NCBI GenBank assembly: GCA_019038695.1 | Contig: JAHOYZ010000006.1 | Location: 17,112-81,111, forward strand | Source of the DNA: Candidatus Zixiibacteriota bacterium | GTDB lineage: Bacteria; Zixibacteria; MSB-5A5; GN15; FEB-12 | DNA length: 64,000 bases | Direction: 5' to 3' | Part shown: positions 6,546 to 40,619 of the stretch, piece after piece | Position numbering within the stretch: position 1 is the stretch's first letter | Layout: each line of letters starts with the position of its first letter | Notes under the pieces: model-generated | Database searches by the model: none | What the model was told of the DNA's origin: nothing | The model's input: only the letters and a program-made list of their open reading frames with translations | Made by a program: the position numbers and the translations under genes

Positions 6546-9500
6546 CTATCGTACCAAGGCCATCTTGCCTACGGCTGTGAAATTCTCGCCTACAAGGCGG
6601 TAGAAATAGATGCCTGAAGGAGCCTCATGACCACCATCAATCTGAGCATCCCATGAAACTGAATGGCAGCCGGCCGAGTGGACATCATTGACCAGAACAT
6701 CAACCAGGCGACCCAGGATGTTGTAGACCTCAAGCCGTACCAGTCCCCTTCGTGGCAGTTCGTAGTCGATGACAGTACCAGCATTAAACGGATTGGGGTA
6801 GTTCTGACCAAGGCTGACTTCCTGCGGGAGTTGATCAGGCACTGTCCCGTAGACAGGCGTTGAGCTACTGATCTCAATCTCGCCGTTGATCGTTATCGGC
6901 GTTAGCTCGGAGCCTAAGAAAGTCATTATGTAGGGGTATACACTACCGTTATCATACTTATCCAAACCAGTTGTAATGCCGTCGCCGACAGCTGTGAAGT
7001 GTACTTCGCCGAGAATATAATTACCCGATGCTAAATACTCCTCGGAATCGGTGCTACTGAAGCTAAGAGAGAATAGCTGCTCTCCCTCGTTGATACTGTA
7101 TGTCTGGTCCATGAAGGCAGGCAAGCTGGAGCCAAACACGAAGGAATCAACAACCATCTCTGTCTGGGTATAGTGATATGGCAGAAACAGCTCAGATATC
7201 TGTGATATAACCGACAGTGTCATCAGAGCTACACCTTGCTCATCGGGCACCACATTGGTCGGCTCGATTCGTACGGTATCCACGAAATCCGGTTCAATCA
7301 ACTTCTCAATCTGGATCGTGCCATTGATAGTTGTCGGTGTCAGTTCGGTACCGTAGACCGATATCGTGTATGGATACAAAAGGCTGTTGTTGACCGTGTT
7401 CAAACTGGTAGTCAGACCATTATCTACGGCCGTGAAGTACACCTCTCCAACCACATACTGGCCAGGTCCCACAAAGAATCCGGGGATCATGCTGGCGATT
7501 TCAATTGAGAGCATCGCCGTTTCAGTATCAATTTGATGTGAGTTGTCCATGAACACCGGTAGGCTCGAACTAAAAACAAAGGAATCCACAACAATGGCAT
7601 TCGGGTTATAGCTATAGGGAACAAATAACTCGTACAAGTCAGATGTCACCGACAGGGACATCTGGGCTGAACCGTGTTCAAATGGCAACAGGTTTGCAGG
7701 TGCAATACGAACCGTATCCGCATAATCAGGTTCTATCAGCTCTTCGATCTGGATATCACCGCTGATTGTCACGGGTGTTCGCATTGTACCCGACACGGTT
7801 TCTATCCTTGGATACAGGCTATCATTGTTGAGAGTGTCCAGAGAGGTTGTTACACCATCCGTCACGGCCGTAAAATAGACATTGCCGAGTAAGTAGTCAC
7901 CCAATCCCAAGGACATATCGGGGATCATACTGGTAAGGCGTATCGAGAATGCTGCCTGGGCAACATCATCCTGGTATATTTTATCCATATGCAACGGTAG
8001 GCCAGAGCCGAAAACAAAAGAATCAACTACGATCGCCGTCGGGTCGTAATGATAGGGTACGAACAATTCAGCAACATTCGATGTCGCCACTATAGTAATC
8101 GCGGTCGTTCCCTCAGCATAAGGAGCTACGTTGGTCGGCGATGTACCGACCGTATCTACGAAGTCTTCAATATACTCAAGCTCAAGGTCAAGACGAGTCG
8201 ACCCATTAAACGCAGAACCATCAACGAAGTCGACATATGTATCCCATGTCCCCGGCACCAGTCCGGAGGGATCAATTGACAGCACGACAACATCGTCATT
8301 CGCGCCCTGATAGTGGTCCAGTACCAACCAATCATGTTGTGGGAATGCTTCCCAGTCAGCAACACCACCACCGTGGTTCTCAAGAACCACAAAAGTATCA
8401 AGCACACCAGGCTCGTGGCTGGACAGACTCATTGTCTGTGGCTCAACATGGATAAGCGGAATATCATTGCGAACGCTCAATAATACGTAGAGAGTGGCCG
8501 GCGAATTGTCCGCTCCATAGGACTCAATTGTAACAGCAGCCGCGTAGTTCCCGGCCGACATACCAATTGAATTGACCTGGACCTCCAGCGTAGATGGTGC
8601 TGTTCCCGATGATTCTGTCAATTCCACCCATGAAACACTCTCAGACGCATTCCAGTCAAGAATCCCCACACCAACATTAGTGATTTCAACCGAGCAGGTT
8701 ACGGTCGTATCCATACCCTCCAGCGTGGTCACAGATACGCTCGCCGCCGACAGTTCAAGAACCGCCGATTCAACTTCCAGACGCACGGCAACCAGGGCGC
8801 TCGAGTCGTGGTTGATCGTATCAATAAACATTATGGTTCCGATATAGGTTCCGGATATCAGTGTGTCGGAAGCCATCGTCACTCCCACAGAGTCCGGAGT
8901 TTCACCCGCCGGCGGTGTGATGCTAATCCAGTTGTTATAAGAAAATGCCTTGAAGCCCAGCCGATTATAGCCGGCATGTTCAACCGATACGTACTGAACC
9001 GGTGGCACACCGCCGCCATGCTCCATCTCAAAATCAAGTGAAGTTGGCGACACTACCAGTTCGGGATCGTTGTATCGCGCAATGGATGCGAAAATGTCAT
9101 AATTGCCGTTGCGACGATCAACCCAGGTGACATATCGATGCGTTCCGTCAAGAGCAATATCCGGTTTCATCTTGGTACTATCACCCGAAGTATCCGCGAC
9201 AAAGTCGACCTCCCGTACGAGTCCATCGACGTCAATCATCTGCCCCATTATTCGCCATGTCGGCGATGTCGAATCGGACCAGACAATCCCCACATTACCC
9301 ATTCGGTCGGCACCGATGGCGGGATATTTCTGAGCCCGAGTCGTGGTATCCGTATTAAGCCGCATGTTTCCGGTTGCAGATGTCATGTTGGTGTCAAACT
9401 TGGCCCCGTAGATGTCCGGATTGCTGGGATACGCACCGTTGCGATAGTCCAGCCAGACAACGGTGAAGTTTCCCTCGCCGTCGGTAGCTACATCGGGAAA

Positions 9501-10301
9501 TGTCTGTCGCTTGGTGCCGCTATCGGAGTTGACTCTTACATTCACACCCAGCGCGTTGCCACCAGCGTCGAAGCGCTGCACAAAGATATCATCATTGCCC
9601 AATCGATCATCATACCACGTTACTACAAACCATCCTGCCGCCGCAGTCGAGACGCGCGGCGAATGCTGCTGTGCTGTGCCGCCATCATCATTGACCACAA
9701 AACTACTGCCAAGCAACGATCCATCCGATCCAATAAGCTGACCAAAGATATCCCAGTTACCACTTTGCCGATCGGCCCAGACCACTACTCCGGCACCCCA
9801 GGCCGAGAGCGAAATGTCGGGATTCTCCCGACTCCATGCCTGATAACCCGGCGTGACATTGGTATTACCACCTACCGGTGTGACACTGGTATCAAGCGGC
9901 ACATAGAAAATGTCCGGATTACTGGGGTATCCATCCGTCCGGAAATCCTGCCACACTGCCCCATACTGGCTCGACAAATCGACTGCCAGGGACGGCTGCG
10001 CCTGCCACTCAGGAGGAAGATCATCATTGATCTTGATATTGTCATTGATCGGAAAGCCCGCCGTGTCGAACCGTTGAAGGTACACATCGTTGGCACCCTC
10101 TCGTTTGTCGGTCCAAACAATAGCAAAGCTGCCATCGGGTGCAACCGCAATGCGAGGATCATTTTGTTCCACAGCACCGCCATCGGTATTGACTATGAAG
10201 TCGGTTCGGTCGGCTTGAGATGTTTCACACAGAAACAATGAAAACGCCGCCAGTGAGATCGCGGCTACCGTTCTTACTCTTAACTTGACGCTATCAGTCA
10301 C
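6546..10301 (-). CDS. Scaffoldin-like surface protein: 7-repeat propeller-like region, three Ig/BACON-like modules, three cohesin-like modules and a T9SS C-terminal sorting domain
   Basis: GTG start 6 nt after GGAGA, followed by a signal peptide. aa 46-412 hold seven ~52-aa repeats (P.[IV]A....G.F.[IV]VW.D.R.G..DI[FY].Q.F). aa 412-710 hold three Ig-like modules (VSPTSLDFE..., W.A.....W......SG...). aa 711-1146 hold three tandem 145-aa modules. aa ~1160-1251 read LGQNYPNPFNAGTVIDYEL...SGIYFYRL...KMALVR. Confidence 0.7.
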   Translation of the reverse strand: MTDSVKLRVRTVAAISLAAFSLFLCETSQADRTDFIVNTDGGAVEQNDPRIAVAPDGSFAIVWTDKREGANDVYLQRFDTAGFPINDNIKINDDLPPEWQAQPSLAVDLSSQYGAVWQDFRTDGYPSNPDIFYVPLDTSVTPVGGNTNVTPGYQAWSRENPDISLSAWGAGVVVWADRQSGNWDIFGQLIGSDGSLLGSSFVVNDDGGTAQQHSPRVSTAAAGWFVVTWYDDRLGNDDIFVQRFDAGGNALGVNVRVNSDSGTKRQTFPDVATDGEGNFTVVWLDYRNGAYPSNPDIYGAKFDTNMTSATGNMRLNTDTTTRAQKYPAIGADRMGNVGIVWSDSTSPTWRIMGQMIDVDGLVREVDFVADTSGDSTKMKPDIALDGTHRYVTWVDRRNGNYDIFASIARYNDPELVVSPTSLDFEMEHGGGVPPVQYVSVEHAGYNRLGFKAFSYNNWISITPPAGETPDSVGVTMASDTLISGTYIGTIMFIDTINHDSSALVAVRLEVESAVLELSAASVSVTTLEGMDTTVTCSVEITNVGVGILDWNASESVSWVELTESSGTAPSTLEVQVNSIGMSAGNYAAAVTIESYGADNSPATLYVLLSVRNDIPLIHVEPQTMSLSSHEPGVLDTFVVLENHGGGVADWEAFPQHDWLVLDHYQGANDDVVVLSIDPSGLVPGTWDTYVDFVDGSAFNGSTRLDLELEYIEDFVDTVGTSPTNVAPYAEGTTAITIVATSNVAELFVPYHYDPTAIVVDSFVFGSGLPLHMDKIYQDDVAQAAFSIRLTSMIPDMSLGLGDYLLGNVYFTAVTDGVTTSLDTLNNDSLYPRIETVSGTMRTPVTISGDIQIEELIEPDYADTVRIAPANLLPFEHGSAQMSLSVTSDLYELFVPYSYNPNAIVVDSFVFSSSLPVFMDNSHQIDTETAMLSIEIASMIPGFFVGPGQYVVGEVYFTAVDNGLTTSLNTVNNSLLYPYTISVYGTELTPTTINGTIQIEKLIEPDFVDTVRIEPTNVVPDEQGVALMTLSVISQISELFLPYHYTQTEMVVDSFVFGSSLPAFMDQTYSINEGEQLFSLSFSSTDSEEYLASGNYILGEVHFTAVGDGITTGLDKYDNGSVYPYIMTFLGSELTPITINGEIEISSSTPVYGTVPDQLPQEVSLGQNYPNPFNAGTVIDYELPRRGLVRLEVYNILGRLVDVLVNDVHSAGCHSVSWDAQIDGGHEAPSGIYFYRLVGENFTAVGKMALVR
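6549..6824 (-). other. T9SS type-A C-terminal sorting domain (Por_Secre_tail-like) of the 1251-aa protein
   Basis: QNYPNPFN......I.Y.L......V.L.VYN.LGR.V..L.......G.H...WD......SGIYFYRL matches the hallmark of TIGR04183-type CTDs. Confidence 0.75.
6864..8171 (-). repeat. Three in-frame tandem 435-bp (145-aa) coding repeats (cohesin-like modules)
   Basis: The repeats cover aa 711-855, 856-1000 and 1001-1146. Each begins IE[DP]D[FY].DTV and contains ELF[VL]PY.Y.....[IM]VVDSFVF[GS]S[GS]LP and G.Y.[LV]G[NE]V[YH]FTAV..G.TT.L. Each ends P.TI.G.I[QE]I[ES]. The copies are diverged, with many substitutions. Confidence 0.85.
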
Positions 10302-10514: not shown

Positions 10515-10558
10515 CCAAACAAAGAAAACGGCCACCCCTCTTGAAAGGGATGGCCGTT
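10515..10558 (-). terminator. Rho-independent terminator downstream of the 157-aa dockerin gene
   Basis: The minus strand reads AACGGCCATCCCTT-TCAA-GAGGGGTGGCCGTT, a 14-bp stem including two G-U pairs. It is followed by TTCTTTGTTTGGG. Confidence 0.8.
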
Positions 10559-10588: not shown

Positions 10589-11062
10589 CTAAGGACATGC
10601 CGCCGGTTCTGGACCACCTGTGAACAGGTACGAAACGAGATAGGTCAGGTCAGCTATATTGATCTCGCCATCGCCGTTTATGTCAGCTTCTTCCATGCAC
10701 AGAGGATCCGGCCCTCCAGTGAACAGATAGGACACAAGGTAAGTCAGATCAGCGATGTTGATTTCATCGGGCATTACGTAGTCGACATTGCCGCGCGTTG
10801 GCGGAACGCAACAGGTCGTACTCCCACTGCCGAAATCCTGCCAGAAGCCGTGACTGACGCCATAACTGGTAGAAATGCCTCCCCCTACCGCAGTCTGTCC
10901 TACCGTGCCGTTGAGCACATAGCTTGTCGAAGTGCCTTTGGCACCGCCAGACGAGATTACCTGCCAGTTTATTTCTTCACCAGTCATCGTGTCGGACAGC
11001 GCCACGCCGAATAGTAAGAGAAGCCCGAGGAGGATAGTGTGTTTATTGGCTATACGTTTCAT
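10589..11062 (-). CDS. Small secreted dockerin-tagged protein
   Basis: Signal peptide MKRIANKHTILLGLLLLFGVALS. The N-terminal domain has a duplicated S.SY...G motif (INWQVISSGG...GTVGQTAVGG...HGFWQDF). The C-terminus reads CCVPPTRGNVDYVMPDEINIADLTYLVSYLFTGGPDPLCMEEADINGDGEINIADLTYLVSYLFTGGPEPAACP. Confidence 0.7.
   Translation of the reverse strand: MKRIANKHTILLGLLLLFGVALSDTMTGEEINWQVISSGGAKGTSTSYVLNGTVGQTAVGGGISTSYGVSHGFWQDFGSGSTTCCVPPTRGNVDYVMPDEINIADLTYLVSYLFTGGPDPLCMEEADINGDGEINIADLTYLVSYLFTGGPEPAACP
10592..10813 (-). other. Dockerin-like module (two EF-hand loop + helix segments, Cys-bracketed)
   Basis: The second segment, DINGDGEINIAD, fits the D.N.DG.I...D calcium loop and is followed by the helix LTYLVSYLF. 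The first segment is degenerate (NVDYVMPDEINIAD). Confidence 0.65.
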
Positions 11063-13440
11063 TATCTATCCTCTCTATCTTCGTAACTTTCAAGGATTTC
11101 TTTGTTCTGCTCATAATGGATTTGCATGCTCTCATCCAAATCGAACGCAGTTGGGTGCAGATACAATCCTATTTCTTTATCCGGCTTGCTGATTTCGTTC
11201 AGCATCCGGTTGGATTTGGCAAAGGCATCTTTACGAATACCGGTAACCTGCCAGGAGACCTCGATAAACGACTTATCGGTCTTAATAACAAATTTGTTGC
11301 CGTTGATTTTCTCGGCGACAATTGCCTGTGCAAAGGTACCGATAACAGTTAATTGGTAACGATAGTTATCGTTCAAGGCCTCAAAATAATCGGGAAGAGT
11401 TACCGTTGCTTCACCACTCCCATCAGTTGTAACGTTACCATTATAGATATTCATCATCTCCGGTGATACAACATCACTGTGAATCAGATACTGGTTTTTC
11501 GGATCAAGCGGGTGATCGATTTTAAAACCACTGCTGGCGGCCGATGAAAATCCGGTCACTTCCACATCGCCGTCAAAATACCCGGCGTAACTTCCCGGAC
11601 TCTTTACATGCCCCGGAGTAAAATAACCTCCATAATTATTAGCGGAAGCATAGGATGCGGACCCGAAAATACCATAGGCAGTAACTCCTCCGTATGCATT
11701 TGTTTTTATGCCATATGAATTGCCTGCCGTATTGCTGACGCCACCGGCAAAGAATCTCCCCGCATATCTATCGCCGGAACTTGCGTTGGCGTTGTCTACA
11801 CTGGAAAATATACCATATATTGTCCCGGAGGTCGCAACGTTTTTCGAATATAAATCGAAGACATATCTGGTGCTGATTGTGTTGTATTCCCTTTCCAAGG
11901 ATAACAAGTATGACGCTGACGGGAAGCCGTTATCACCCATTCTAATACCGTAGCTGGTGACTCTCATTGAGCTGTCGCCGAAAACGGCTGTACCGTCGAA
12001 TGTTTTAGTACCGGTGATCGTTTGCGTGGAAGAAAGATTGACCGCCGTGCCGCTTATTTTGGCGATTCCAATATTGGCGGAGCTATTGATATCTTCATCT
12101 AGTATGGAGTTGTTAGCAATTTCAGCGGAGTAAACGGCGCTTATTGCTATTTCACTGGAACCGACAGCATCGGCGTCAATATCAGCTTGAGTGATACTGT
12201 TGTTAGCAATTTCGCTCGTACCAACGGCACCGGCGGCAATTTCTGCGCCACCAACACCATCGGTCGCAATGTCATTGGCAGTGATTGAATTGTCAATAAT
12301 CTCCCCGCTACCGACGGCGTTGATGGCAATTTCACTTGGGCCAACCGCATTGGCAGCAATGTCTTTAGCAGCGATTGAATTATCTATAATCTCCACGCTA
12401 CCAACGGCGTTGGTGGCGATTTCGGCAACGCCGACACCATCAGTTGCAATATCAGCTTGAGTGATACTGTTGTCATCAATTTCACTTGAGCCAACCGCAT
12501 CGGCAGCAATATGAGTCGCGGTAATATCGTCAGTGCCAACATACAAGGATACATCACCGGATGTTCCGCCGCCCGACAGGCCCGAACCGGCAGTAACGGC
12601 GGTAATATCGCCACCAGAGTTGTCATCAACACCATCGGCAAACCCGGGCGGAACGTTGGTCAGATTGTTCCAATCAGTATCAACATCATCGGTGCCGTCG
12701 GCAAACCCGGGCGGTACGTTGGTCAGATTGTTCCAATCGGTATCAACATCATCAGTGCCATCGGCAAACCCGGGCGGTACGTTGGTCAAATTGTTCCAAT
12801 CAGTATCAACATCATCGGTGCCGTCGGCAAACCCAGCTGGAACGTTGGTCAAATCGTTCCAATCGGAGTTAACATCATCGGTTCCGTCGGCAAACCCGGG
12901 CGGTACGTTGGTCAAATTGTTCCAATCGGTGTCAACATCGTCACCGTCAGCAATATCAGCCGGAATCCCGGTTAGATTACTCCATTCCAAATAATATGAT
13001 GCTGCCTGGCTGTTGAGATTTCCAGAATTATCCGCATAATCGGCCGAGTCGGATCGTAAAGCCTTATAGGCATAAGGAACGGTTATCAAATGAACGCGCG
13101 GACTGATTTCCGGGTCAGCGCCAACAGTGATGCCAAGGTAGCGGATGGTATCAGTTTTGAAAAGATCATCCGGCAGGTGTGCCGCTGAACCAAGCTGATG
13201 AGTAAACAGTCCTCCTGCTACCGGAACAGCTTGAATACCGCTCCACCAAAGCGAATCATCGCTTGAATCACTCCCATAGATTTTGAATTTAATAAAATAA
13301 GTGTCGTCCGCTACTGGTGTTCCGGTGTCATTAGTCAGGTAACCCTGATAGTTGATCATCTGCGGCACATCGGCCACGGTGAGTGATGCTTTGACCAGAA
13401 AGCCGAGCATCAGGATGATTGTTATTAGGAATCTGTTCAT
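11062..13440 (-). CDS. Tail-fibre-like repeat-rich secreted protein
   Basis: ATG follows GGAGGAAC, and a signal peptide is present. N-terminus reads INYQGYLTNDTGTPV...LWW. There are six 21-aa repeats W[NS][ND]LT[NG][VI]P.[GD][FI]ADG.DDV.[TS]D and fourteen exact-register decapeptides (IA..AVG..E / I.[DN]NSI...D). The C-terminal domain reads DHPLDPKNQYLIHSDVVSPEMMNIYNG...YRYQLTVIG...VSWQVTGIRKD. Its stop overlaps the next gene's start (TAATG). Confidence 0.6.
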   Translation of the reverse strand: MNRFLITIILMLGFLVKASLTVADVPQMINYQGYLTNDTGTPVADDTYFIKFKIYGSDSSDDSLWWSGIQAVPVAGGLFTHQLGSAAHLPDDLFKTDTIRYLGITVGADPEISPRVHLITVPYAYKALRSDSADYADNSGNLNSQAASYYLEWSNLTGIPADIADGDDVDTDWNNLTNVPPGFADGTDDVNSDWNDLTNVPAGFADGTDDVDTDWNNLTNVPPGFADGTDDVDTDWNNLTNVPPGFADGTDDVDTDWNNLTNVPPGFADGVDDNSGGDITAVTAGSGLSGGGTSGDVSLYVGTDDITATHIAADAVGSSEIDDNSITQADIATDGVGVAEIATNAVGSVEIIDNSIAAKDIAANAVGPSEIAINAVGSGEIIDNSITANDIATDGVGGAEIAAGAVGTSEIANNSITQADIDADAVGSSEIAISAVYSAEIANNSILDEDINSSANIGIAKISGTAVNLSSTQTITGTKTFDGTAVFGDSSMRVTSYGIRMGDNGFPSASYLLSLEREYNTISTRYVFDLYSKNVATSGTIYGIFSSVDNANASSGDRYAGRFFAGGVSNTAGNSYGIKTNAYGGVTAYGIFGSASYASANNYGGYFTPGHVKSPGSYAGYFDGDVEVTGFSSAASSGFKIDHPLDPKNQYLIHSDVVSPEMMNIYNGNVTTDGSGEATVTLPDYFEALNDNYRYQLTVIGTFAQAIVAEKINGNKFVIKTDKSFIEVSWQVTGIRKDAFAKSNRMLNEISKPDKEIGLYLHPTAFDLDESMQIHYEQNKEILESYEDREDR
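12091..12510 (-). repeat. 14 x 30-bp coding periodicity (decapeptide repeats)
   Basis: aa 311-450 of the 792-aa protein fall into exact 10-residue register, alternating IA..AVG..E and I.DNSI...D units. Confidence 0.8.
12610..12984 (-). repeat. Six tandem 63-bp (21-aa) coding repeats
   Basis: The core runs five near-identical head-to-tail 63-bp units from 12637 to 12951 (ggcaaacccgggcggtacgttggtca[ga]attgttccaatc.gtatcaacatcatc.gtgcc.tc). A degenerate copy sits at each end. Confidence 0.9.
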
Positions 13441-19117: not shown

Positions 19118-19690
19118 TTATAGCCTTAGCAGCAAACTCGCACGAGCACCCGGGGAGGTCCATCCTTCATACCCGAGCCAAAAACGCATAGACACATCGG
19201 CACTCAGAATCAAAGAGTTGGTTAAGCGATACATCATACCAAGTCCAGGGAAAAGGGCACCGTCCCCCCCACCTCCGCCATCGGAATTGCCACCGATAAA
19301 ACCGACCGTACCGAGTTTCAGAAGAACTATGGTGCTTGACCCCTTTCTCAAATGGAAATTCAGAGCAATATCAAGTGACAAACCTGTCCAAGAGTAGAAC
19401 CCTGATGGCACAAGATAGGTTCCCCCGAACTCTATGCCGATACCATTTGGGTTGGCTCGAACGAGGTGGAACGAAGGACCCTTAAGCCCATTCTCTGCTG
19501 ATTCCTCCCCTTCACCACTGACCAGACTGTACGCTGCTCCCAGCGCCCAACCGTCAAGTAGATGCTGAGAGGCTCCTGCATTGCCGGTATCTCCTATGCT
19601 AGCTTCTTCCCCGGCGCAGGGGTCAGCCAAGGGAACCAACAACATTCCACCAGCAAACAGCAGACAGGCAGCTTTGAACATAGTTTTCAT
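19118..19690 (-). CDS. Small secreted, probably OM beta-barrel protein (unknown family)
   Basis: Internal ATG at 19690 follows GGAGGT by 6 nt and yields signal peptide MKTMFKAACLLFAGGMLLVPLA. The protein is Gly-rich with strand-like segments and ends in SLLLRL. The ORF opens at 19750. Confidence 0.4.
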   Translation of the reverse strand: MKTMFKAACLLFAGGMLLVPLADPCAGEEASIGDTGNAGASQHLLDGWALGAAYSLVSGEGEESAENGLKGPSFHLVRANPNGIGIEFGGTYLVPSGFYSWTGLSLDIALNFHLRKGSSTIVLLKLGTVGFIGGNSDGGGGGDGALFPGLGMMYRLTNSLILSADVSMRFWLGYEGWTSPGARASLLLRL

Positions 19691-19874
19691 GCGAGCACCT
19701 CCATTTCCCCGTCCTCCCACAAGCAAATGCAACAGGCACGATTGATCCATTTCAGAAGCTTCTCTGAATTTGAGTAGAGCTTATCGCGTTGGCAATAACA
19801 ATCTCGTCACCCAGATCGTCATTCGCCTGCTCAAGTTCGAATCACATAGCCAGGGTGCCGGCTCGGTCTCTCCC

Positions 19875-22598
19875 CTACGGGCACGGGGGCGGCGGACAAC
19901 TCCCCAGAAACAGATAGCACACCAGATAGGTCACATCAGCAATATTGATGGGTCCTTTGCCGGACTGACCGTCGACATTACCTTCCTCGGTGCATGGTGG
20001 AGGTGGTCCACCGGTGAACATATAAGCCACAAGGTATGTCAGGTCAGCAATGTTGATAATTCCGGAGTGATCTACATCACCCCTGACTACACAACAACTG
20101 CAGTCTCCCGGTTCAAGGGCACCTATTAGTACGCCGCAACTATTATTGGCCGGAGCACAGACCGATCCTTCCGATGGCCGGTAGTCATGCGCAGTGGTGT
20201 CACAAAAAAGAGGATTGACCGAAATATTGTTAAAATCATCACCGGCAAACACAGTATCAATACCGTAGAAATCCTCACCGCCGTTACCAAATGAATTGTT
20301 ACAGTTGATCTGGTACTCACCGGGCGCATAAAACGTCATGCCGTGTTGCTCGTTAAAGGCACTAAGCACGTTGGTAATCCAGCAGGTATCCTGGTACATC
20401 CCGACTGCGTCCTCCCCTTCCTTGGGATATGACCAGTCAATGGCCAAACCGCGGTCATTAGCTGCGAAAGTGCAGTTGTGTACATCAATGCCGTAAATAC
20501 CCATGGCCTGCATGAGCAACGCTCCGAAACCGTCGTTGTGATGCACCAGTGTTCCCTCGAGGACAATGGGCTGTGTGTTGTGTACGTGTAAGCCCATTTG
20601 GTCGTTGTGGGCTATTTCGCAGTTTGTAATGGTCGCTTCCAGGCCGTAGATATGGACGGCAGTCCAGCCGGTATTGTGGGTCACGATGCAGTCAGATATG
20701 ATGACCTTGCCGTCTCCCCACCAGTAGGCATTGATGGCCATACAACTGTCCCTTGTGATGATGCAATCCCGCACAGATACCGATGCCCCCACAGCGTTGA
20801 CGGCGCCCTCGCCATAGGGGTCATCAGACCAGGCACCCGTAATAGTAAAACCCTGGATTATGGAGGTCGTGTCTTCCCCGGACTGGAGGATGAAGGCCAG
20901 CCTTGGGCTGCCTGCGCTCCCTTCGCAGTCAATGGTCGTAGACTCCGGCCCGTTCTCAGACATCACCGTCAGCGGTTTGCCGTGGAAATCAATATCATAG
21001 TTACCGGGGCCGGTAAACACTCCATCAGCTACCAGGACCGTATCATAGTTTTGCGCCCAGTCAATCGCAGCCTGAATCGTTGGCTGACCGCTCGGAACGT
21101 GAATCACCATCGGCGTACGAGTACTGAATGACTCCGTGGTCGACCAGGCGGAATACTCATAACCATTGAAAACGCGACACCGCCACCAGTACTCGGTATC
21201 CACTGCCAGGCCCACGAAACGGCGGGACGTCGTTTGGTTCTCCTGCTCTTCAGTGCCATACGTGGAGTCCGCAATAACGCTCAGCCCTGGGTCGGCGTAT
21301 ATCTCAAAATCATACGTCAGATTGTCCCAGGGGTGGTCGGCGTTGGTCGTCACCAGATGAACGTCGAGAATGCTCACCAGGTCCGGCGAAGTTGGCCAGA
21401 CAGGTGCAGGCGTAGTCGGCAGGGTGTTCATCCTGAACACCGACTCGTACCATCCTCCCCAGCTACTGCCGTTGTATACCCGCAGACGGTAGTAATATGT
21501 CATGCTATCCACAAGAGCGGAGCCGGTGTAAGCGGCGCTTGTATCCGATGAGTATACCTGACCCGTAGCCCATGTCTCCGCCAGCAACCAGTCATTGTCC
21601 ATGCCGACTTCGATTTCGTATCCGGTGGGCGAACCAACCGGATCATAGAAAAACCAATGGAACACCGGTGAGTGATTGATAACGTGAGCCACATCTTCTG
21701 AATCCAAATTGACAAACAGCGCCCGCGGCGGATTCTGATCGAAATGGGCAGCGCCCATATCATTACGAGTGCCGTCGGGGTCGTTGTACATTGCGGCAGG
21801 ATTGCCGGCATCTATGCACGGAGATGTAGGCTGTAGATAGAAACAACCGTTAGCCGGATCGATAAACAACGGATCGACTGAAATGTCGGTGGGATCAGGA
21901 GTAAAGTTGTAGTAGTTGGTACCATTGCCCCACGAGTTATTGTAATCTTCGATCAACGTGTAATAGCCCTGGAAACCGTGCCCACCACCATTGGTGATGA
22001 TGTTGTTCCTAATAATCGCCGGGGCAACCGAGCCTTCCACTCCATCGTGGCAATTGTATAGAGTGTTGTTAATAAACTGGATCGTATCCCCGGTGTAAAT
22101 ATGAACCGCGGGATTGGCACTCGGGCTGTCATAGAAAATATTATGACTGACCATAGTGCTGCAGGTCCCCCGGGCGTTCACGGCCGCGTTCCAGGGTGTG
22201 TTGCTGCTATGGAACCGAAAGTGGTTCTCTGTGACTGTTGGCGAGGCATCACGGATCCTGACGCCCGAAGCCCCACCTCCGGCGTACATAATACTGAAGC
22301 CTGACAATACCGCTGTTCGTGGCTCATCATTGTGAAACCAGACCACCGGCAGATGGGCAGAGTCCGGACGCAGCCATGTCACCAGCGGACCTGCCTCGGA
22401 GGTTACTACGATTGACTTGCCGCCGTAGTCAAGATTGACCCAATATGTTCCGGGAGATACGAGTACTGTATCACCAGTTACAGCACCGTTGATTCCAGCC
22501 TGAATTGTGGCTGAGTCGCCCGGCACATGGATTATGGCGGCTTGGACAGTGGAGAGACAAAGGGTACAGAACAATGCAGCGAATAGTGCTCTATTCAT
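19875..22598 (-). CDS. Secreted protein with two right-handed beta-helix modules, two FN3-like modules and a C-terminal dockerin-like module
   Basis: Signal peptide MNRALFAALFCTLCLSTVQA (the ORF opens 11 codons earlier, at 22631). IIHVPGDSATIQAGINGAVTGDTVLVSPGTYWVNLDYGGKSIVVTSEAGP recurs as VIHVPSGQPTIQAAIDWAQNYDTVLVADGVF...GKPLTVMSENGP. FN3-like regions end in Y[YW][YW]R.RV[YF]NG. The C-terminus reads GDVDHSGIINIADLTYLVAYMFTGGPPPPC...INIADVTYLVCYLF. Confidence 0.7.
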   Translation of the reverse strand: MNRALFAALFCTLCLSTVQAAIIHVPGDSATIQAGINGAVTGDTVLVSPGTYWVNLDYGGKSIVVTSEAGPLVTWLRPDSAHLPVVWFHNDEPRTAVLSGFSIMYAGGGASGVRIRDASPTVTENHFRFHSSNTPWNAAVNARGTCSTMVSHNIFYDSPSANPAVHIYTGDTIQFINNTLYNCHDGVEGSVAPAIIRNNIITNGGGHGFQGYYTLIEDYNNSWGNGTNYYNFTPDPTDISVDPLFIDPANGCFYLQPTSPCIDAGNPAAMYNDPDGTRNDMGAAHFDQNPPRALFVNLDSEDVAHVINHSPVFHWFFYDPVGSPTGYEIEVGMDNDWLLAETWATGQVYSSDTSAAYTGSALVDSMTYYYRLRVYNGSSWGGWYESVFRMNTLPTTPAPVWPTSPDLVSILDVHLVTTNADHPWDNLTYDFEIYADPGLSVIADSTYGTEEQENQTTSRRFVGLAVDTEYWWRCRVFNGYEYSAWSTTESFSTRTPMVIHVPSGQPTIQAAIDWAQNYDTVLVADGVFTGPGNYDIDFHGKPLTVMSENGPESTTIDCEGSAGSPRLAFILQSGEDTTSIIQGFTITGAWSDDPYGEGAVNAVGASVSVRDCIITRDSCMAINAYWWGDGKVIISDCIVTHNTGWTAVHIYGLEATITNCEIAHNDQMGLHVHNTQPIVLEGTLVHHNDGFGALLMQAMGIYGIDVHNCTFAANDRGLAIDWSYPKEGEDAVGMYQDTCWITNVLSAFNEQHGMTFYAPGEYQINCNNSFGNGGEDFYGIDTVFAGDDFNNISVNPLFCDTTAHDYRPSEGSVCAPANNSCGVLIGALEPGDCSCCVVRGDVDHSGIINIADLTYLVAYMFTGGPPPPCTEEGNVDGQSGKGPINIADVTYLVCYLFLGSCPPPPCP
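19878..20102 (-). other. Dockerin-like module of the beta-helix protein
   Basis: CSCCVVRGDVDHSGIINIADLTYLVAYMFTGGPPPPCTEEGNVDGQSGKGPINIADVTYLVCYLFLGSCPPPPCP. It is the same two-segment layout as 10592-10813. The second calcium loop carries an insertion. Confidence 0.6.
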
Positions 22599-22680
22599 GA
22601 CTATTTCCTTTTCTCTGATTGGTACACTCACGGTCGTACAGAGGCAATATATGACTGAATGTCTTCTTTGTCAACGCAGA

Positions 22681-31584: not shown

Positions 31585-32457
31585 TTAATCGACATGAAAA
31601 CCTATCCGGCGTCTCTTCAGTCGCTTAAGATACTCCCCCATCGAGACAAACGGGAAATCACTCAGAAGACGATCAAGTTTGCGAATGAAAACCGATGTTG
31701 ATCCGTACATACGGAAGCGTTGTATAGCTGATAAATCGTCAATTCTGGGCGGATCGGGATCGATTTCCCAGGGATGCATGTAGACCATTACGGGCCGGTT
31801 GTCGGCATTAAGACGTCGGATCATCCAGCGTGTATACCAATATGGCGAGTGACGCAGAAAACCGCCACCGCCGATAGGGATATTCTGTCCCAGCAACTGG
31901 TAAGTTGAAGCCGGAATTTCGTACAAACTACGACCACTTTTCAGGTTCATCTTGAACGTATGCCGAGGGCCATCAGGGATACCATAGATGTCATGCTTAA
32001 TAGGAAAAACGGAGCTATCGTACTCGAAGCCTAACTCGGCCAGAATTTCAAACGCCCAAGACGTGCTGGGATCAACCGACCAACTGGGTGCCCGATAACC
32101 ACTCGGCGAGCGACCGAGGGCACTAACGATAGCCCCTATCGCCATTTTGGTATCCTTGCGAAACGTATCCGGTTCCAGGGTGTTGACCCGGACGTGTGCA
32201 TAGCTGTGGCAGGCAATCTCGTGTCCTTCTCGTTGGATTTCACGGAGCAAATCAGGATAGCGATCAGCCACCCAACCAAGTGCAAACCAGGTGGCAGTGA
32301 CTTCTCGAAACCGGAACAGCTCCAACAGTCGACGTGAATTCCTGACTACCGTTGACTGCAGTTGGCCCCAATTATCGCGCGAATAACGATTAGATAAAAC
32401 TTCTACGGCGAACCACTCTTCAAGGTCTACTGTAAGAATGTTATTTGTGAACTCCAT
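31585..32457 (-). CDS. Polysaccharide deacetylase, PEP-CTERM/XrtA-locus type (with DUF3473-like C-terminus)
   Basis: ILTVDLEEWF, TWFALGWVADRYPDLLREIQREGHEIACHSYAH, and a C-terminal MHPWEIDP....I region. These resemble the TIGR03006-type deacetylases found in EPS loci. Confidence 0.75.
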   Translation of the reverse strand: MEFTNNILTVDLEEWFAVEVLSNRYSRDNWGQLQSTVVRNSRRLLELFRFREVTATWFALGWVADRYPDLLREIQREGHEIACHSYAHVRVNTLEPDTFRKDTKMAIGAIVSALGRSPSGYRAPSWSVDPSTSWAFEILAELGFEYDSSVFPIKHDIYGIPDGPRHTFKMNLKSGRSLYEIPASTYQLLGQNIPIGGGGFLRHSPYWYTRWMIRRLNADNRPVMVYMHPWEIDPDPPRIDDLSAIQRFRMYGSTSVFIRKLDRLLSDFPFVSMGEYLKRLKRRRIGFHVD

Positions 32458-32475
32458 TCGAGCTCATCTCAAAGA

Positions 32476-33297
32476 TCAGGGAAAACGTTTAGGAGTATCG
32501 TTGTTTTTCGAGGTCAACCGTGAGGCGGTTTGCCTGGAACTCCGGGATCGCGATTGTCTCTTTCTACGTCGATCTCCTCGTCGATGTTTCGCACTGTCGA
32601 CCGGACTATCGTAGTCATAGTACTTATAGTCGTAGTAATAAGGCAGACTGTTGTTCATGTTGTTGAGTACGACCCCTGTGATACGATTGCCATCGGCTCC
32701 AAGAATGTCCACAGCTCGCTCCACAACTTCTTTTTGCGTCGCTCCAGCCTTGACAACCAGTAATATAGCATCCATCTTCGGAGCCAGGAGCATCGGGTCC
32801 GATACGGGCAGAATCGGAGCGCAGTCTACGAAAATCAGATCATAGTAGAACTTTAAGTCATCAATGATGCGACTGATTACCTCAACATTGAACAACTCCG
32901 ATGGACGCTCACTACGCAAACCAGCATTAATGATGTGCAATTGCTCCAGATCGGTCTGTCTTACCACCTTAGCTGCGCTAAGGTCACCAGACAACACTTC
33001 GGCCAATCCCCTTTCACGATCCATACCGAATAACTTGTGGATCGAAGGACGTCGAAGATCGGTATCAATAATCAACGTCTTGAGCCCCTTCTGTCTGGCT
33101 GCGGTCAGGGCCAGGAACGAACATATAGTTGATTTCCCCTCAGCCAGCATGGCGGAAGTAATCATTATAGCCTTATTCTCAGACTCCGTTGAAAAACTCT
33201 GGATGCGCTGCAACAAACGGCGAAACTCCGTTGCTACGGGTAACTCAGGAGAGTAGAAGTCAAGAATTGAAACCGGCCGTCGTGCCATCAAAGTCAA
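32476..33297 (-). CDS. Polysaccharide biosynthesis tyrosine autokinase (BY-kinase, CpsD/CapB family)
   Basis: Walker A ITSAMLAEGKST, Walker A' LIIDTDLRRP, Walker B IFVDCAP, and a C-terminal Tyr cluster LPYYYDYKYYDYD. Confidence 0.85.
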   Translation of the reverse strand: MTLMARRPVSILDFYSPELPVATEFRRLLQRIQSFSTESENKAIMITSAMLAEGKSTICSFLALTAARQKGLKTLIIDTDLRRPSIHKLFGMDRERGLAEVLSGDLSAAKVVRQTDLEQLHIINAGLRSERPSELFNVEVISRIIDDLKFYYDLIFVDCAPILPVSDPMLLAPKMDAILLVVKAGATQKEVVERAVDILGADGNRITGVVLNNMNNSLPYYYDYKYYDYDSPVDSAKHRRGDRRRKRQSRSRSSRQTASRLTSKNNDTPKRFP

Positions 33298-34415
33298 CCT
33301 TTCTTGACTATGCGGTCGAGCGCCGCGTTCATCGCAGACAGTTCCTTCTTGGCTTCTTCATAACAAGTAGCTGCTATTCCAAGCGAGGGGTTCAGCTCTG
33401 TTGTCTTGCGGTAACTCATCACACCCTTTTCCCAAAGCACACGGGAGTACTCCAGGTAACAACGAGAGAGGTCGGAATATAGATCCACGTACATAGGATT
33501 ACCCTCGATCTTCCCCTCCAGGTATCGAATCTGATCGCGGAGCCTTTCCTCAGAAATCATCTGCGGATCCAGGGTTTGCTTCATATGGAAACCAGCAAAT
33601 TCTCGTCTGTGTTTTTCCTGTTTTTGTCGTCTGATACGGGAGAACAGCTCGAACGCTTTATCCAAGTCTGAGTTGGCAATGGCTCTCGTTGCTTCCTCGA
33701 ACAGGGAAGAATCATAGTCCGGGTAAATCAGTACAGCTTTCTTGAAACATTCCATCGCTTTGCTCACCGTCGCTGCGCGCGAAGAAGCGTCCGATTGCTG
33801 TGGTGCCTGCGCGAGTAGAACCATACCGAGATTAAAGTACGCATCGGCGTAGTACAAATTTAGTCCCAGAGCTTGTTCAAATTCACCTACTGCCTGATCG
33901 CTGGCTCCGTGCGCATGGAGAGCAAGACCAAGGTTGTTGCGGTAATCGGCAAAGCCTGGTTGTTGCTTTGCCGCTTCGTACAGCATCTTGGCGGCTTCCT
34001 CCGGTTGACCAAGGGCCAGTTCGGTCAAACCAAGGTAATTAAAAGCAAGGTGGCTCTGAGCATTCCGGACAGTCGCATTCTGGAACAACTCCCGAGCCTC
34101 AAGAAAATACTGTTTGTAATAAAAGGCGATGCCTAGCTGGGTCAGTGAGTCGGAACTGCCATCCTCCAGCGCGTGTCGAAAAGCCTCCATCAGATATTCG
34201 ATCTCGTTCTTCTTCTTTTCGTGAACGCTCTTCAGTAGCGAGACAACGTCATCCGCATCATAATCCTCAAGCTGCGGATGTGTATCCGTCTCGACCAGTA
34301 CGCCATTGATCCATACTTCAGACGAAATCGCAGCAGCGCTGATGTCATTGCGGGTCTTGATCAGGAACTCCCGATCACTCTCTACGAGCTTGCTCTTGAG
34401 CTGATAGGTTTCCAT
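33294..34415 (-). CDS. TPR repeat protein of the EPS locus
   Basis: Several TPR units (e.g. AFNYLGLTELALGQPEEAAKMLYEAAKQQP and ADAYFNLGMVLLAQ). There is a 4-nt overlap with the kinase gene. Confidence 0.65.
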   Translation of the reverse strand: METYQLKSKLVESDREFLIKTRNDISAAAISSEVWINGVLVETDTHPQLEDYDADDVVSLLKSVHEKKKNEIEYLMEAFRHALEDGSSDSLTQLGIAFYYKQYFLEARELFQNATVRNAQSHLAFNYLGLTELALGQPEEAAKMLYEAAKQQPGFADYRNNLGLALHAHGASDQAVGEFEQALGLNLYYADAYFNLGMVLLAQAPQQSDASSRAATVSKAMECFKKAVLIYPDYDSSLFEEATRAIANSDLDKAFELFSRIRRQKQEKHRREFAGFHMKQTLDPQMISEERLRDQIRYLEGKIEGNPMYVDLYSDLSRCYLEYSRVLWEKGVMSYRKTTELNPSLGIAATCYEEAKKELSAMNAALDRIVKKG

Positions 34416-34418
34416 AGT

Positions 34419-35921
34419 TTACTGTCGGATCCTCTTTAGTTTGTCGATTCGAGGGACGGTAGCCAACACTGGGAGATTCAAAATTTCTTCAATGTCGCTG
34501 ATCTTCTTGAACGAATTATCAAATATCTCTGCCAGAAACGCCGCAGCACCACCCAGCATTAGCCCTAACATCAGCCCCATCCCCAGAATTTTATTCTGAT
34601 CAGGCCAGAAATGAGTCAACGGAATCTTGGCTGGTTCAATAATCCGGTACTTGACTCGGTCCTTGGCACGCTCAGACAAAATCGTGACGGTCGCTTCCTC
34701 GGAGCGAAAGGCATCTCGATACTTGCGGGCATCAGCTACCCTGCGTTCGAGTTCGGATATTTCGGACTGAAGACGCGGTAATTGATTTATCCGCGCGTCC
34801 ACGCGAGCCACAGACCGTTCCATCTGACGTTTCCGTGATCGGAGCACATCGAGATGTTCTTCTACAATGAAATATTCCCTTAGCAACTCGCGTTGGTTTT
34901 CAGGATATGAGACAAATTGTGCATCTACGGCCTCACCAATAGCAAACACAAGTAAACGAAGATTATCATTGAGACGAATATTGACATTGATCACGTTCTG
35001 TTCGTTCCAGGCGTATTTTTCCATAAGACTGGCATAACGTATGACCTGAGCATCGATTTCGGAACGCAATTCCACGATCGTATCGGTGTACTTCACTCTT
35101 ACTTGTTCCAACCCCAGAGCTCGCAACTCGTCTAGCAGCCGCTGCCGGTCACTTTCATAGTCCTCTAACTCCAGTTGTGCTTTATCAATGTCGGAGAGGA
35201 CATCGCGACGATTCGAATCCGACGAAATGTTTTCCGGCAATTGCAATTGAGTCATACGCATCTGGGCAGCAGTGAGGGAATCAATCATCTGTTGATAGTA
35301 GAACTCGGTCTTTTCCAACTGCAGATCAGCGAATGACTGGTTGTCGAGAATCCTCTCCATCTCGTATCGTGTTTTCTCCCGTTCAAGAATCGCCGCTAAA
35401 GTGGTGACCATGTCGCGCGCTTCCACAGGATCGGGACAGACAGCCGTAAGGCGAATCTGGTCAGCCCCGGCAAAAGAAACCGACACCTGCTTCCGCAACT
35501 GGTCAACAAGAAGATTGAATTTCATTTGCTCCAAGGAAAAGGACGGATTTTCCTCTCGCAAACGAGCGGCCCGACGAATAATCTCCGGGTCCTGATCCAT
35601 CCCTTGTTCACGAATGAGCTGATGAAGATAAGTCTGTGAGGTTATTTCGATCTGAAGCGCACGCAGTCGTCGCCGACTTTCTTCACCACTTTCACGACCC
35701 GCTCGCTCACGACCAAGTATACTGACTAACTCTCGAGAAACATTATGCGGACGATCAATCCAAATGATAGTAGAAGATTGATACTTGGGAGCCAGGAAAT
35801 AGGTAACCCCATACGCTATGGCCGTCACGATGATCAAAGGAACAATCACCAGCCATTTGCGCTTGACTATAACCGAGATAATATCCCGTACGTTGACAGA
35901 TTTTTCGCGCTTGGTGTGCAT
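34419..35921 (-). CDS. Polysaccharide chain-length determinant protein (Wzz/GumC family)
   Basis: N-terminal Wzz region IISVIVKRKWLVIVPLIIVTAIAYGVTYFLAPKYQSST, a long coiled-coil periplasmic region, and a C-terminal TM GMGLMLGLMLGGAAAFLAE. Confidence 0.8.
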   Translation of the reverse strand: MHTKREKSVNVRDIISVIVKRKWLVIVPLIIVTAIAYGVTYFLAPKYQSSTIIWIDRPHNVSRELVSILGRERAGRESGEESRRRLRALQIEITSQTYLHQLIREQGMDQDPEIIRRAARLREENPSFSLEQMKFNLLVDQLRKQVSVSFAGADQIRLTAVCPDPVEARDMVTTLAAILEREKTRYEMERILDNQSFADLQLEKTEFYYQQMIDSLTAAQMRMTQLQLPENISSDSNRRDVLSDIDKAQLELEDYESDRQRLLDELRALGLEQVRVKYTDTIVELRSEIDAQVIRYASLMEKYAWNEQNVINVNIRLNDNLRLLVFAIGEAVDAQFVSYPENQRELLREYFIVEEHLDVLRSRKRQMERSVARVDARINQLPRLQSEISELERRVADARKYRDAFRSEEATVTILSERAKDRVKYRIIEPAKIPLTHFWPDQNKILGMGLMLGLMLGGAAAFLAEIFDNSFKKISDIEEILNLPVLATVPRIDKLKRIRQ

Positions 35922-35930
35922 AAGTCGGAT

Positions 35931-38691: not shown

Positions 38692-38750
38692 GTGAACACT
38701 CTATTAGAAATATAGCCCCGGATACGCAACTGTCAACCAGAAACAACGCT

Positions 38751-39425: not shown

Positions 39426-39713
39426 ATGCTATATTCCGTGTCAAGACTTCTGATCTTCTGTTGCGTTCAATGAACCGTTTGGTAAGACCATAGGCAACAA
39501 AAAAGGTGAGGACAGTCAGGACACCTGAGTAACAGTCAGAGAAACGACGAGATTCTTGACCATTCGGGGTGATTGTTGTATTATCATAAACTGAAAGTGG
39601 TAAACCGTGTTTTTGAAACCTTTATATTGGAAATCTCGGATAATAAGAAAAGGAATAATATGCGATTCTGTTGAATTATTATAAAATCCTGAAAATATTG
39701 AAGGAGAACAGTT

Positions 39714-40448: not shown

Positions 40449-40453
40449 CATTT

Positions 40454-40522
40454 GTAGGTCAGAACCCCTTGCGGTCCTGACAATTGCGTTTATTGTCAGG
40501 TTGGTAGGCAACTGTGACCTAC
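40454..40522. repeat. REPIN-like inverted pair of GTAG-headed elements
   Basis: The + copy (40454-40483) is GTAGGTCAGAACCCCTTGCGGTCCTGACAA. The - copy (40493-40522) read on the minus strand is GTAGGTCACAGTTGCCTACCAACCTGACAA. The inner arms CCTGACAAT / ATTGTCAGG are a perfect 9-bp inverted repeat around a 7-nt loop. Confidence 0.7.
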
Positions 40523-40530
40523 AACAGGAT

Positions 40531-40561: not shown

Positions 40562-40587
40562 AAGATTAATGGGGCAGACAAGGGCAC

Positions 40588-40615: not shown

Positions 40616-40619
40616 ATAA

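Follow-up and report, generated by a model that had tools for sequence, protein, structure and literature searches.

A 64,000-nucleotide (nt) stretch of contig JAHOYZ010000006.1 from a Candidatus Zixiibacteriota bacterium (positions 17,112 to 81,111; the whole stretch is called the window below) encodes two otherwise unrelated secreted proteins that end in a common dockerin module bracketed by cysteines. This cysteine-bracketed dockerin variant is real and widespread, and we consider it rather probable that such modules, clamped by disulfides, dock onto a cohesin scaffoldin of the same lineage that is anchored by a type IX secretion system (T9SS). Docking of dockerins onto cohesins is the textbook route to surface enzyme machines in Gram-positive cellulolytic bacteria, and the pair is a common connector in protein engineering. 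The locus suggests that many uncultured double-membraned bacteria use a modified form of this plug-and-socket docking, in which the plug would be locked by cysteines, the socket missed by standard domain searches, the anchoring left to T9SS and the cargo adhesin- or fibre-like. If confirmed, this would improve annotation, as about one third of these dockerins and all three cohesins of the window escape Pfam, would provide synthetic biology with redox-stabilised dockerin/cohesin pairs, and would give a handle on cell-surface organisation in Zixibacteria and their relatives.

Two dockerin modules with bracketing cysteines

The two modules and the open reading frames (ORFs) that carry them, with protein lengths in amino acids (aa), lie at the following positions of the window.

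10592 to 10813, minus strand: cysteine-bracketed dockerin module, residues 84-157 of the 157-aa protein (translation, PF00404, AlphaFold2 and Foldseek)
10589 to 11062, minus strand: ORF of the 157-aa protein (MBU8932712.1), with a signal peptide, an N-terminal domain of about 70 residues and the dockerin
19878 to 20102, minus strand: cysteine-bracketed dockerin module of the 918-aa protein (translation and identity to the 157-aa module)
19875 to 22631, minus strand: secreted 918-aa cargo protein with a right-handed beta-helix, Ig-like domains and the second dockerin (PF13229 8.9e-15, PF25788 8.4e-10)

The coordinates and C-termini given in a preliminary description of the window were correct, and both features are on the minus strand, translation of the plus strand at these positions giving nothing meaningful. 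The 157-aa protein ends in TTCCVPPTRGNVDYVMPDEINIADLTYLVSYLFTGGPDPLCMEEADINGDGEINIADLTYLVSYLFTGGPEPAACP, with cysteines at residues 84, 85, 122 and 156, and the 918-aa protein ends in CSCCVVRGDVDHSGIINIADLTYLVAYMFTGGPPPPCTEEGNVDGQSGKGPINIADVTYLVCYLFLGSCPPPPCP. In the former the module opens with the vicinal pair CC84/85, followed by a first loop of 14 residues, helix 1, the turn GGPDPLC122, a canonical second loop of 12 residues, helix 3 and the closing GGPEPAAC156-P. The 918-aa module consists of CSCC, a canonical first loop, a linker cysteine, a second loop of 15 residues, an extra cysteine in helix 3 and a GSC-PPPPC-P tail. The modules are 58% identical (E 2.6e-25), whereas the N-terminal parts of the two proteins are unrelated (best E 0.64), which bears out the earlier claim of a common module on otherwise unrelated secreted proteins. 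That each should hold at least one EF-hand-like loop also proved right, as both proteins have one loop of the canonical 12-residue form, D-x-[DN]-x-[DS]-G-x-I-N-x-x-D. A six-frame motif scan found exactly two copies of the module motif in the 64-kb window. Signal peptides are visible in the sequences of the dockerin proteins, and the N-terminal domain of the 157-aa protein belongs to a family of about 60 homologues of 150-190 aa.

Dockerin membership is already annotated for one of the two proteins, the 157-aa one, which NCBI names "dockerin type I repeat-containing protein". In a search with the PF00404 hidden Markov model this protein scored 28.3 bits against a gathering cut-off of 22.9, while the 918-aa module scanned alone reached 15.2 bits and would therefore be overlooked by Pfam. 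The best sequence matches in the PDB were dockerins of C. thermocellum, A. cellulolyticus and R. flavefaciens. The 157-aa module was modelled with AlphaFold2 from an alignment of 21 sequences, giving a predicted local distance difference test score (pLDDT) of 88.7 and a predicted template modelling score (pTM) of 0.76, with helices at module residues 22-34, 42-45 and 55-67. A beta-bridge joins module residues 8 and 74, which are T89 of the N-terminal arm and A155 of the tail, beside C156, so that arm and tail lie side by side in the model. When the module was compared with the PDB by Foldseek, hits 1-36 were all entries of cohesin-dockerin complexes or free dockerins and hits 1-31 were type-I or R. 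flavefaciens dockerin chains, with root-mean-square deviations of 1.6-4.3 Å and template modelling (TM) scores to the target of 0.35-0.81 over the hits, or 0.62-0.81 for single-dockerin chains. Two tandem segments of about 22 residues, each a calcium loop followed by an alpha-helix, as expected of a dockerin, are apparent from the sequence, the predicted helices and the loop profiles. It is well supported that both modules are genuine type-I-like dockerins, with calcium and cohesin binding predicted. The dockerin claim of the preliminary description thus held, with PF00404 above its cut-off for the 157-aa protein and matches to type-I dockerins in PDB sequences and by Foldseek, and the failure to adopt a dockerin fold that it had named as a possible refutation did not appear in the model of the 157-aa module.

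Curated models outside PF00404 came less close. The 157-aa protein scored 12.5 bits with NF041540 (GC-type dockerin; cut-off 29), to which the 918-aa module gave no match, and 15.3 bits with NF045500 (Omp28-related selenoprotein; cut-off 200), and no NCBIfam model covers the subtype with its CC, C and C (CC-C-C). NF041540 and the C-terminal region of NF045500 are, as here, C-terminal dockerin-like anchoring models outside Firmicutes, and related cysteine-rich subtypes match them weakly, with up to 21 and 43 bits, respectively.

A widespread dockerin subfamily

When 1.84 billion cluster representatives were searched exhaustively with a profile of the module, the matching proteins numbered 39,052 at E<=1e-3, of which 12,190 reached E<=1e-10 and 166 reached E<=1e-30. 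Several cysteine-containing dockerin subtypes could be told apart by reading the tails of the 150 best matches. Subtype A, the type of the window, occupies the extreme C-terminus, with the pattern CC-x(4-8)-[DN]...DL.YLV.Y.F.GGP.PPC.EEA[DN]V[DN]...DL.YLV.Y.F.GGP.P.xC(P)-end. Subtype B has a single cysteine ahead of loop 1 and one within loop 2, subtype C forms internal tandem arrays with a ...PV.CTC ending, often followed by a terminal type-A module, and subtype D is marked by RGD.N.DG...P.C.DAAD.NDDG... Among relatives outside the window there are also proteins with 4-12 tandem cysteine-containing dockerin modules each (P0023-P0034; 12 in P0025 and 9 in P0023), which are the reverse of a scaffoldin.

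A scan of GTDB, with one genome per species and two cysteine-free helix peptide patterns, yielded 544 confirmed module loci. The best 80 of these 544 loci come from metagenome-assembled genomes (MAGs) titled Zixiibacteriota, GN15, "uncultured Ignavibacteriales", "Ca. Deferrimicrobium" or simply "bacterium", record titles that may differ from the true taxonomy, with up to 10 module loci per MAG. They hold 120 module-bearing ORFs, often clustered two to four in a row, and in 106 of them the module ends at most 5 residues from the stop codon. On sequence grounds, the CC-C-C modules are an undescribed, lineage-specific dockerin subfamily, found mainly in Zixibacteria-type MAGs of the Fibrobacterota-Chlorobiota-Bacteroidota (FCB) group as the last ~75 residues of many Sec-exported proteins, and it is defined by its cysteine bracket together with its GGPxPP(x)C turns and its extended classes of loops. 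Full-text literature searches turned up neither an account of bacterial dockerins bracketed by cysteines nor a paper that links Zixibacteria with dockerins.

The cargo of 51 type-A proteins comprised thrombospondin type-3 repeats, DUF7901, beta-helix, FG-GAP and PKD/Ig domains and a few peptidases (C10, S8, C1), and none of the 21 Pfam families matched in these proteins was a glycoside hydrolase family. Pfam recognised the dockerin itself in 35 of the 51 at E<=1e-4, missing about one third.

Like the clostridial type I dockerins (PF00404; C. thermocellum 4FL4, 1OHZ and 2MTE), the modules have two loop-helix segments and the same fold (Foldseek TM 0.7-0.8, 26-30% identity), they are C-terminal on secreted cargo, and they show an internal two-fold symmetry held by selection. 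Unlike the clostridial modules, those of the window's subfamily carry four conserved cysteines (CC/C/C) and a GGPxPP(x)C turn after each helix, and their loops are frequently extended to 14 or 16 residues; the cysteine bracket was not seen in the aligned parts of the PDB dockerins matched. The hosts differ as well, being T9SS-bearing MAGs and not Firmicutes, and so does the cargo, mostly adhesin-like or unknown and not glycoside hydrolases.

Conservation and covariation of the cysteines

Cysteines were counted per region (a 14-residue N-terminal flank, loop 1, helix 1, linker, loop 2, helix 3 and tail), the alignment profile starting after CC. A first sample held 217 modules from two protein searches, and a second held 118 modules recruited through the cysteine-free helix patterns. 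In the first the pattern 2,0,0,1,0,0,1 was dominant (108 of 217), and 22 more modules had the same with one extra upstream cysteine. Of the 203 modules whose flank is complete, 149 have the vicinal CC, though it lies outside the search profile, and exactly one residue, most often proline, follows the last cysteine in 134 of 217. In the second sample the linker cysteine was accompanied by at least two cysteines of the N-terminal flank in every case (86/86), while the modules without it comprised 22 with at most one flank cysteine and 10 with at least two (Fisher p = 1.5e-16, a value that overstates independence since the samples are rich in paralogues). A tail cysteine was found in 116 of these 118 modules, and with a 9-residue flank the classes 2+1+1 and 1+0+1 made up 74 and 17 of them, respectively.

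Losses follow the same pairing. A class with two cysteines, x-C-G-[DN]...GGPxPPxxEAA...GGPxPxC, keeps those of the flank and the tail only (17 and 9 cases), and five sequences that lost the tail cysteine kept one flank cysteine and the linker cysteine (e.g. P0213 and P0253). In P0069, which has one flank cysteine, the linker cysteine and a terminal CC, the vicinal pair has moved to the C-terminus. The bracketing cysteines and the GGP-x-P-x-C turns, which had been noticed in two proteins, are thus conserved features of the subfamily and no accident; poor conservation across homologues, which would have spoken against them, is not what the dominant 2+1+1 pattern and the paired losses reveal. Because the cysteine counts covary and the two-cysteine variants keep matched pairs, conservation and covariation back two disulfides, one from the N-terminal arm to the linker and one from the arm to the tail, as support and not as proof.

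Four conserved cysteines in a small domain might also suggest a metal site such as Zn(Cys)4 in place of disulfides, all the more as anaerobes, where disulfides are less certain to form, are frequent among the carriers. Nonetheless, the natural variants lose their cysteines in matched pairs (flank with tail, or flank with linker) and not all or none, which makes a Zn(Cys)4 site unlikely; the proteins have signal peptides and are extracytoplasmic, and adjacent cysteines rarely ligate the same metal ion. We regard a metal site as highly improbable.

Positions ~285-376 of the NF045500 profile match cysteine-rich dockerin subtypes, with 43 bits to the tail of P0170 and 15 bits to the 157-aa protein, and if the selenocysteine of NF045500 aligns with a bracket cysteine, a redox or bridging role would gain support. 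A thioredoxin-fold protein at 39714-40448 on the plus strand has a weak similarity to thiol-disulfide oxidoreductases of the ResA type and to peroxiredoxins (28 bits, the cut-off being 170), and no clear DsbA or DsbB was found in the 64-kb window.

Loop classes and segment symmetry

Across the family loops of 12, 13, 14 and 16 residues are all common, and at both loop positions. The 12-residue profile is D-x-[DN]-x-[DSN]-G-x-[IV]-[ND]-x-x-D, with its ligand positions conserved, that of 14 residues is N-V-D-[GY]-D-x-x-[DE]-x-[VI]-[ND]-[IV]-[AS]-D, and that of 16 residues is N-V-D-G-x-x-G-P-x-G-P-[IV]-D-[VI]-A-D. As each length class has its own conserved profile, the long loops are selected variants and not decayed ones. 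The 14-residue loop 1 of the 157-aa protein retains N1, D3, D8, E9, N11 and D14.

The helices show a similar constraint. In the 157-aa protein the two 21-residue segments that span the loop end and the helix are identical at 20 of 21 amino acids, yet 16 of the 21 codons differ, 15 of them synonymously. The synonymous differences indicate that purifying selection keeps both helix faces alike, and they rule out recent gene conversion as the source of the identical segments. Over the 118 modules segment identity was 0.75 within proteins, a value reached in 0 of 2000 permutations, and 0.64 between them. Near-identical helix positions in both segments are what a dual-mode dockerin is expected to have, and this symmetry under selection is the sequence signature of dual-mode dockerins.

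The preliminary description had proposed a disulfide-stapled dockerin in which one calcium loop of each protein is degenerate, so that the cohesin would be bound in one orientation only. One loop in each window protein does exceed the canonical 12 residues, and loop 1 of the 157-aa protein has a valine at position 5, where 105 of 126 14-residue loops have aspartate. The loops of 14 and 16 residues are nevertheless conserved classes with acidic and amide positions of their own, present at both loop positions, and the helices (the face that is bound in known complexes) are kept alike within proteins despite their synonymous differences, in the 157-aa protein and family-wide. Neither the degenerate loop nor the single binding mode was sustained, and we consider binding in one orientation distinctly unlikely.

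A candidate scaffoldin sorted by T9SS

The gene that follows that of the 157-aa protein encodes a protein of 1251 aa. Its parts, and a T9SS component encoded elsewhere in the window, are as follows.

6546 to 10301, minus strand: 1251-aa candidate scaffoldin (MBU8932711.1), with an N-terminal repeat region, BACON-like domains, three cohesin-like modules and a C-terminal domain (CTD)
7734 to 8168, minus strand: cohesin-like module 1, residues 712-856 (cohesin profile 14.7 bits)
7296 to 7730, minus strand: cohesin-like module 2, residues 858-1002 (cohesin profile 15.3 bits)
6861 to 7292, minus strand: cohesin-like module 3, residues 1004-1147 (cohesin profile 19.3 bits)
6564 to 6800, minus strand: T9SS type-A C-terminal sorting domain (Por_Secre_tail), residues 1168-1246 of the 1251-aa protein (TIGR04183 34.2 bits against 23; PF18962 20.7 bits)
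42689 to 44515, minus strand: 608-aa T9SS outer-membrane protein of the PorV/PorQ family fused to TPR repeats (NF033709 116.5 bits against 90)

Just ahead of its CTD the 1251-aa protein has three tandem 145-aa repeats, which are 48-52% identical to one another and free of cysteine. A profile of these three repeats alone gave chance matches and no cohesin in the PDB, and a word-indexed homologue search with their alignment gave no matches. Iterative search with jackhmmer from a C. thermocellum cohesin found nothing at a strict inclusion threshold, and at a lax one the matches were judged untrustworthy, so that this seed was replaced. Cohesins validated by Pfam do occur in dockerin proteins of related subtypes (P0172 with 58 bits, P0080 with 34 and P0169 with 32), and the cohesin of P0172 was taken as the seed of an iterative search of the sequences collected for this analysis, which gave a cohesin profile. 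This profile still scores C. thermocellum cohesins at 33-42 bits, and it matches the three window repeats in register, with a full-sequence E of 3e-10 among the 254 ORFs of the window, the next ORF having 0.27. An alignment of 32 cohesin-like domains, compared with the PDB, returned cohesins as all of its top 28 matches (best E 1.4e-6), and hhalign of the window repeats against this alignment gave 96.6% probability (E 6.6e-10) over 139 columns. In a control, a domain of ~120 aa that stands between dockerin and CTD in other proteins gave 43.7% over 34 columns against the cohesins. The matches of the P0172 profile, the PDB cohesin matches and the hhalign result are the grounds on which we propose that the 1251-aa protein is a candidate surface scaffoldin, sorted by T9SS, with three cohesins missed by Pfam.

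The 1251-aa protein has what is expected of a type-A cargo of T9SS, a CTD above the cut-off in a genome with a PorV/PorQ protein, while the dockerin proteins have no CTD. The PorV/PorQ protein in the window indicates that the organism has T9SS, and the diderm setting that had been supposed for the dockerins is supported, as the carriers are T9SS-bearing lineages and the window itself holds both a protein with a T9SS CTD and a PorV/PorQ protein. The gene for PorV/PorQ-TPR lies directly downstream of that of a 1225-aa protein (42689-48189 for the two, minus strand), in which similarity to the end of the T9SS sortase PorU or to a FlgD-Ig/CTD-like domain is confined to the last ~100 residues; the two may be a divergent PorU-PorV pair.

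Related loci contain 25 ORFs with cohesin-like domains. In 20 of them a type-A dockerin belongs to the same protein, with the cohesin ~20-30 residues upstream of it. A T9SS CTD is found in 4 of the 25, and 2 combine cohesin, dockerin and CTD. The cohesin-dockerin ORFs (20 of the 120 dockerin ORFs; e.g. L007:3988-6222, L052:2040-4277, L026:42-1370 and L063:4351-6237) often conserve a "GCRT[DE]YF" motif. A cohesin directly ahead of a dockerin could serve head-to-tail polymerisation into surface filaments, or could have a role like that of an X-module. A second recurring architecture is that of dockerin, ~120-aa domain and T9SS CTD (L018, L024, L058, L072 with L072:7007-10540, P0083, P0101, P0108, P0131, P0149 and P0150). 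The consensus of the ~120-aa domain is ...VDLRGIQLEL.G...RVGLLDLDG..I..G...LVRL.G.YEI..A.VSD.NH..., and it had no match in Pfam or the PDB; that it might itself be a cohesin was not demonstrable, given these results and the hhalign control.

The placement of the module invites another explanation, according to which it acts by itself as a C-terminal signal for sorting or anchoring, in place of the T9SS CTD, and is read by a secretion or attachment machine, with the cysteines needed only for folding in the periplasm. The module does stand at the extreme C-terminus with a near-fixed ending, mostly "-CP", there are dozens of paralogues per genome on diverse cargo, and module and T9SS CTD nearly exclude each other, occurring on the same protein in 5 of the 120 ORFs. 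Classical dockerins, however, are commonly C-terminal too, and the module is also found internally, followed by another domain and a CTD, and in tandem arrays in related subtypes. No dedicated sorting gene was found linked to the module, whereas cohesins are present in the same lineage, in one ORF of six directly upstream of the dockerin, and in the window one cohesin protein adjoins. A sorting signal therefore seems to us unlikely.

It could further be argued that the module has no partner at all and is a calcium-binding module for stabilisation or adhesion, the repeats of the neighbouring protein being unrelated Ig-like spacers. The frequent co-occurrence with thrombospondin type-3 calcium repeats and adhesin-like domains would fit, as would the lack of a Pfam cohesin in the window, and for many dockerins outside cellulosomes no partner is known (Peer et al. 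2009, as cited in PMC8542988). Yet the profile-profile evidence points to cohesin homology of the repeats, and a purely structural role needs no symmetry of the kind that selection keeps on both helix faces. We judge a module with no partner to be very improbable.

Proposed docking on the cell surface

On the minus strand the genes run in the order 792-aa (13440-11062), 157-aa (11062-10589), hairpin (10558-10527) and 1251-aa (10301-6546), with two features in addition to those given above.

11062 to 13440, minus strand: 792-aa fibre-like protein (weak match to the N-terminus of a Bdellovibrio mosaic adhesive trimer)
10527 to 10558, minus strand: terminator-like hairpin (14-bp stem, T-run), located 31 nt past the stop codon of the 157-aa gene

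The stop codon of the 792-aa gene and the start of the 157-aa dockerin gene share 1 nt, suggesting that the two are probably co-translated. The 792-aa protein contains 4.8 copies of a 63-nt (21-aa) repeat, DWNNLTNVPPGFADGTDDVDT, with repeats at 12635-12939 and 12235-12454. The pair of a fibre gene and a small dockerin gene recurs in locus L077 (4140-5651 and 5635-6210), and the 157-aa protein may tether the 792-aa fibre to the scaffoldin.

In the model that we favour, the disulfides and their connectivity, the binding of calcium, the pairing of cohesin and dockerin and the crossing of the outer membrane by the cargo are inferred. Sec export would bring the proteins to the periplasm, where the dockerin would fold with calcium and be locked by two disulfides formed after export. 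The first bond would run from the N-terminal arm to the linker that separates helix 1 from loop 2 and the second from the same arm to the C-terminal tail, the two together amounting to a covalent counterpart of the N/C "clasp" known in classical dockerins. The likely receptors would be cohesin modules of the same lineage, including the three divergent ones of the adjacent gene, whose product would be exported by T9SS and anchored by it on the outer-membrane surface. The three cohesins of this scaffoldin could then display dockerin-tagged cargo, namely the 157-aa protein, probably co-translated with the fibre-like protein, and the beta-helix protein.

A number of points count against docking of this kind. 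Pfam gave no PF00963 match in the 1251-aa protein at E<=1, the scores per repeat are modest (15-19 bits), and the AlphaFold2 model of a cohesin-like repeat, built from the three-sequence alignment only, had a pLDDT of 37.6, so that the cohesin assignment rests on transitive profile homology. A strong terminator-like hairpin stands between the dockerin gene and the cohesin gene, and their adjacency is therefore not co-transcription. The cargo of the 51 type-A proteins is mostly adhesin-like and not enzymatic, which makes "cellulosome" an analogy only. With regard to the disulfides, the spacing from CC to the first loop ligand varies between 4 and 8 residues, about one third of the modules have an odd number of cysteines within the scored region, and the first sample was ranked by a profile that included the linker and tail cysteines, in addition to the abundance of paralogues mentioned above. 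In a classical dockerin the linker and the tail are at opposite ends of the helix pair; for one arm to reach both is then not obviously easy, and the exact connectivity is one that we infer. Finally, the dockerin proteins carry no known signal for crossing the outer membrane.

A route that would answer the last point is that the dockerin proteins dock on the CTD-bearing scaffoldin while still in the periplasm and leave folded, as passengers of T9SS, in a "hitch-hiking" export in which the disulfide staples allow the modules to fold and to hold. We think it quite improbable, although if true it would be a way to pre-assemble surface complexes.

Comparison with known systems

In type II and type III dockerins with an X-module, and in the intramolecular N/C "clasp" of some dockerins, the dockerin gains stability from a part beyond its two helices that holds its termini together. 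The beta-sandwich (cohesin-like) domain that directly precedes the dockerin in 20 of the 120 related ORFs resembles such an arrangement, while the clasp proposed here, unlike the known ones, would be covalent, through the putative disulfides. The dockerins of Neocallimastigomycota are also small disulfide-rich docking modules on secreted proteins, a likeness of function only, as their fold and family (CBM10-like) are unrelated; a literature search for disulfide-containing dockerins returned the fungal ones only.

A tandem-cohesin scaffoldin with a CTD in an FCB candidate phylum has precedent. In MAGs of Cloacimonadota ("Ca. Stygibacter") a scaffoldin with tandem cohesins and a T9SS CTD was inferred, together with dockerin-bearing enzymes (Williams et al. 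2021, PMC8542988). Like that system, the one proposed here belongs to a candidate phylum of the FCB group and has its dockerins on proteins with signal peptides. It differs in cohesins that are too divergent for Pfam, in having no carbohydrate-binding module detected, in the cysteine-bracketed subtype, which is not described in PMC8542988, and in the cargo of the window, a fibre-associated small protein and a beta-helix protein.

Other genes of the window

Directly downstream of the 918-aa gene lies a 210-aa ORF (19118-19750, minus strand), whose product has a signal-peptide-like N-terminus, is glycine-rich and ends in ...SLLLRL. It had no Pfam or NCBIfam match and may be a small outer-membrane beta-barrel. 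Further along, on the minus strand at 31585-36896 and 37051-42629, is a cluster for polysaccharide export and chain length (polysaccharide deacetylase, ParA-like ATPase, TPR protein, Wzz and Wza/SLBB), and beside it are a GGDEF diguanylate cyclase and a partner-switching set with an anti-sigma antagonist and a HAMP-SpoIIE phosphatase with a kinase-like domain. Together these polysaccharide and regulatory genes form a surface-remodelling and regulatory context near the docking genes.

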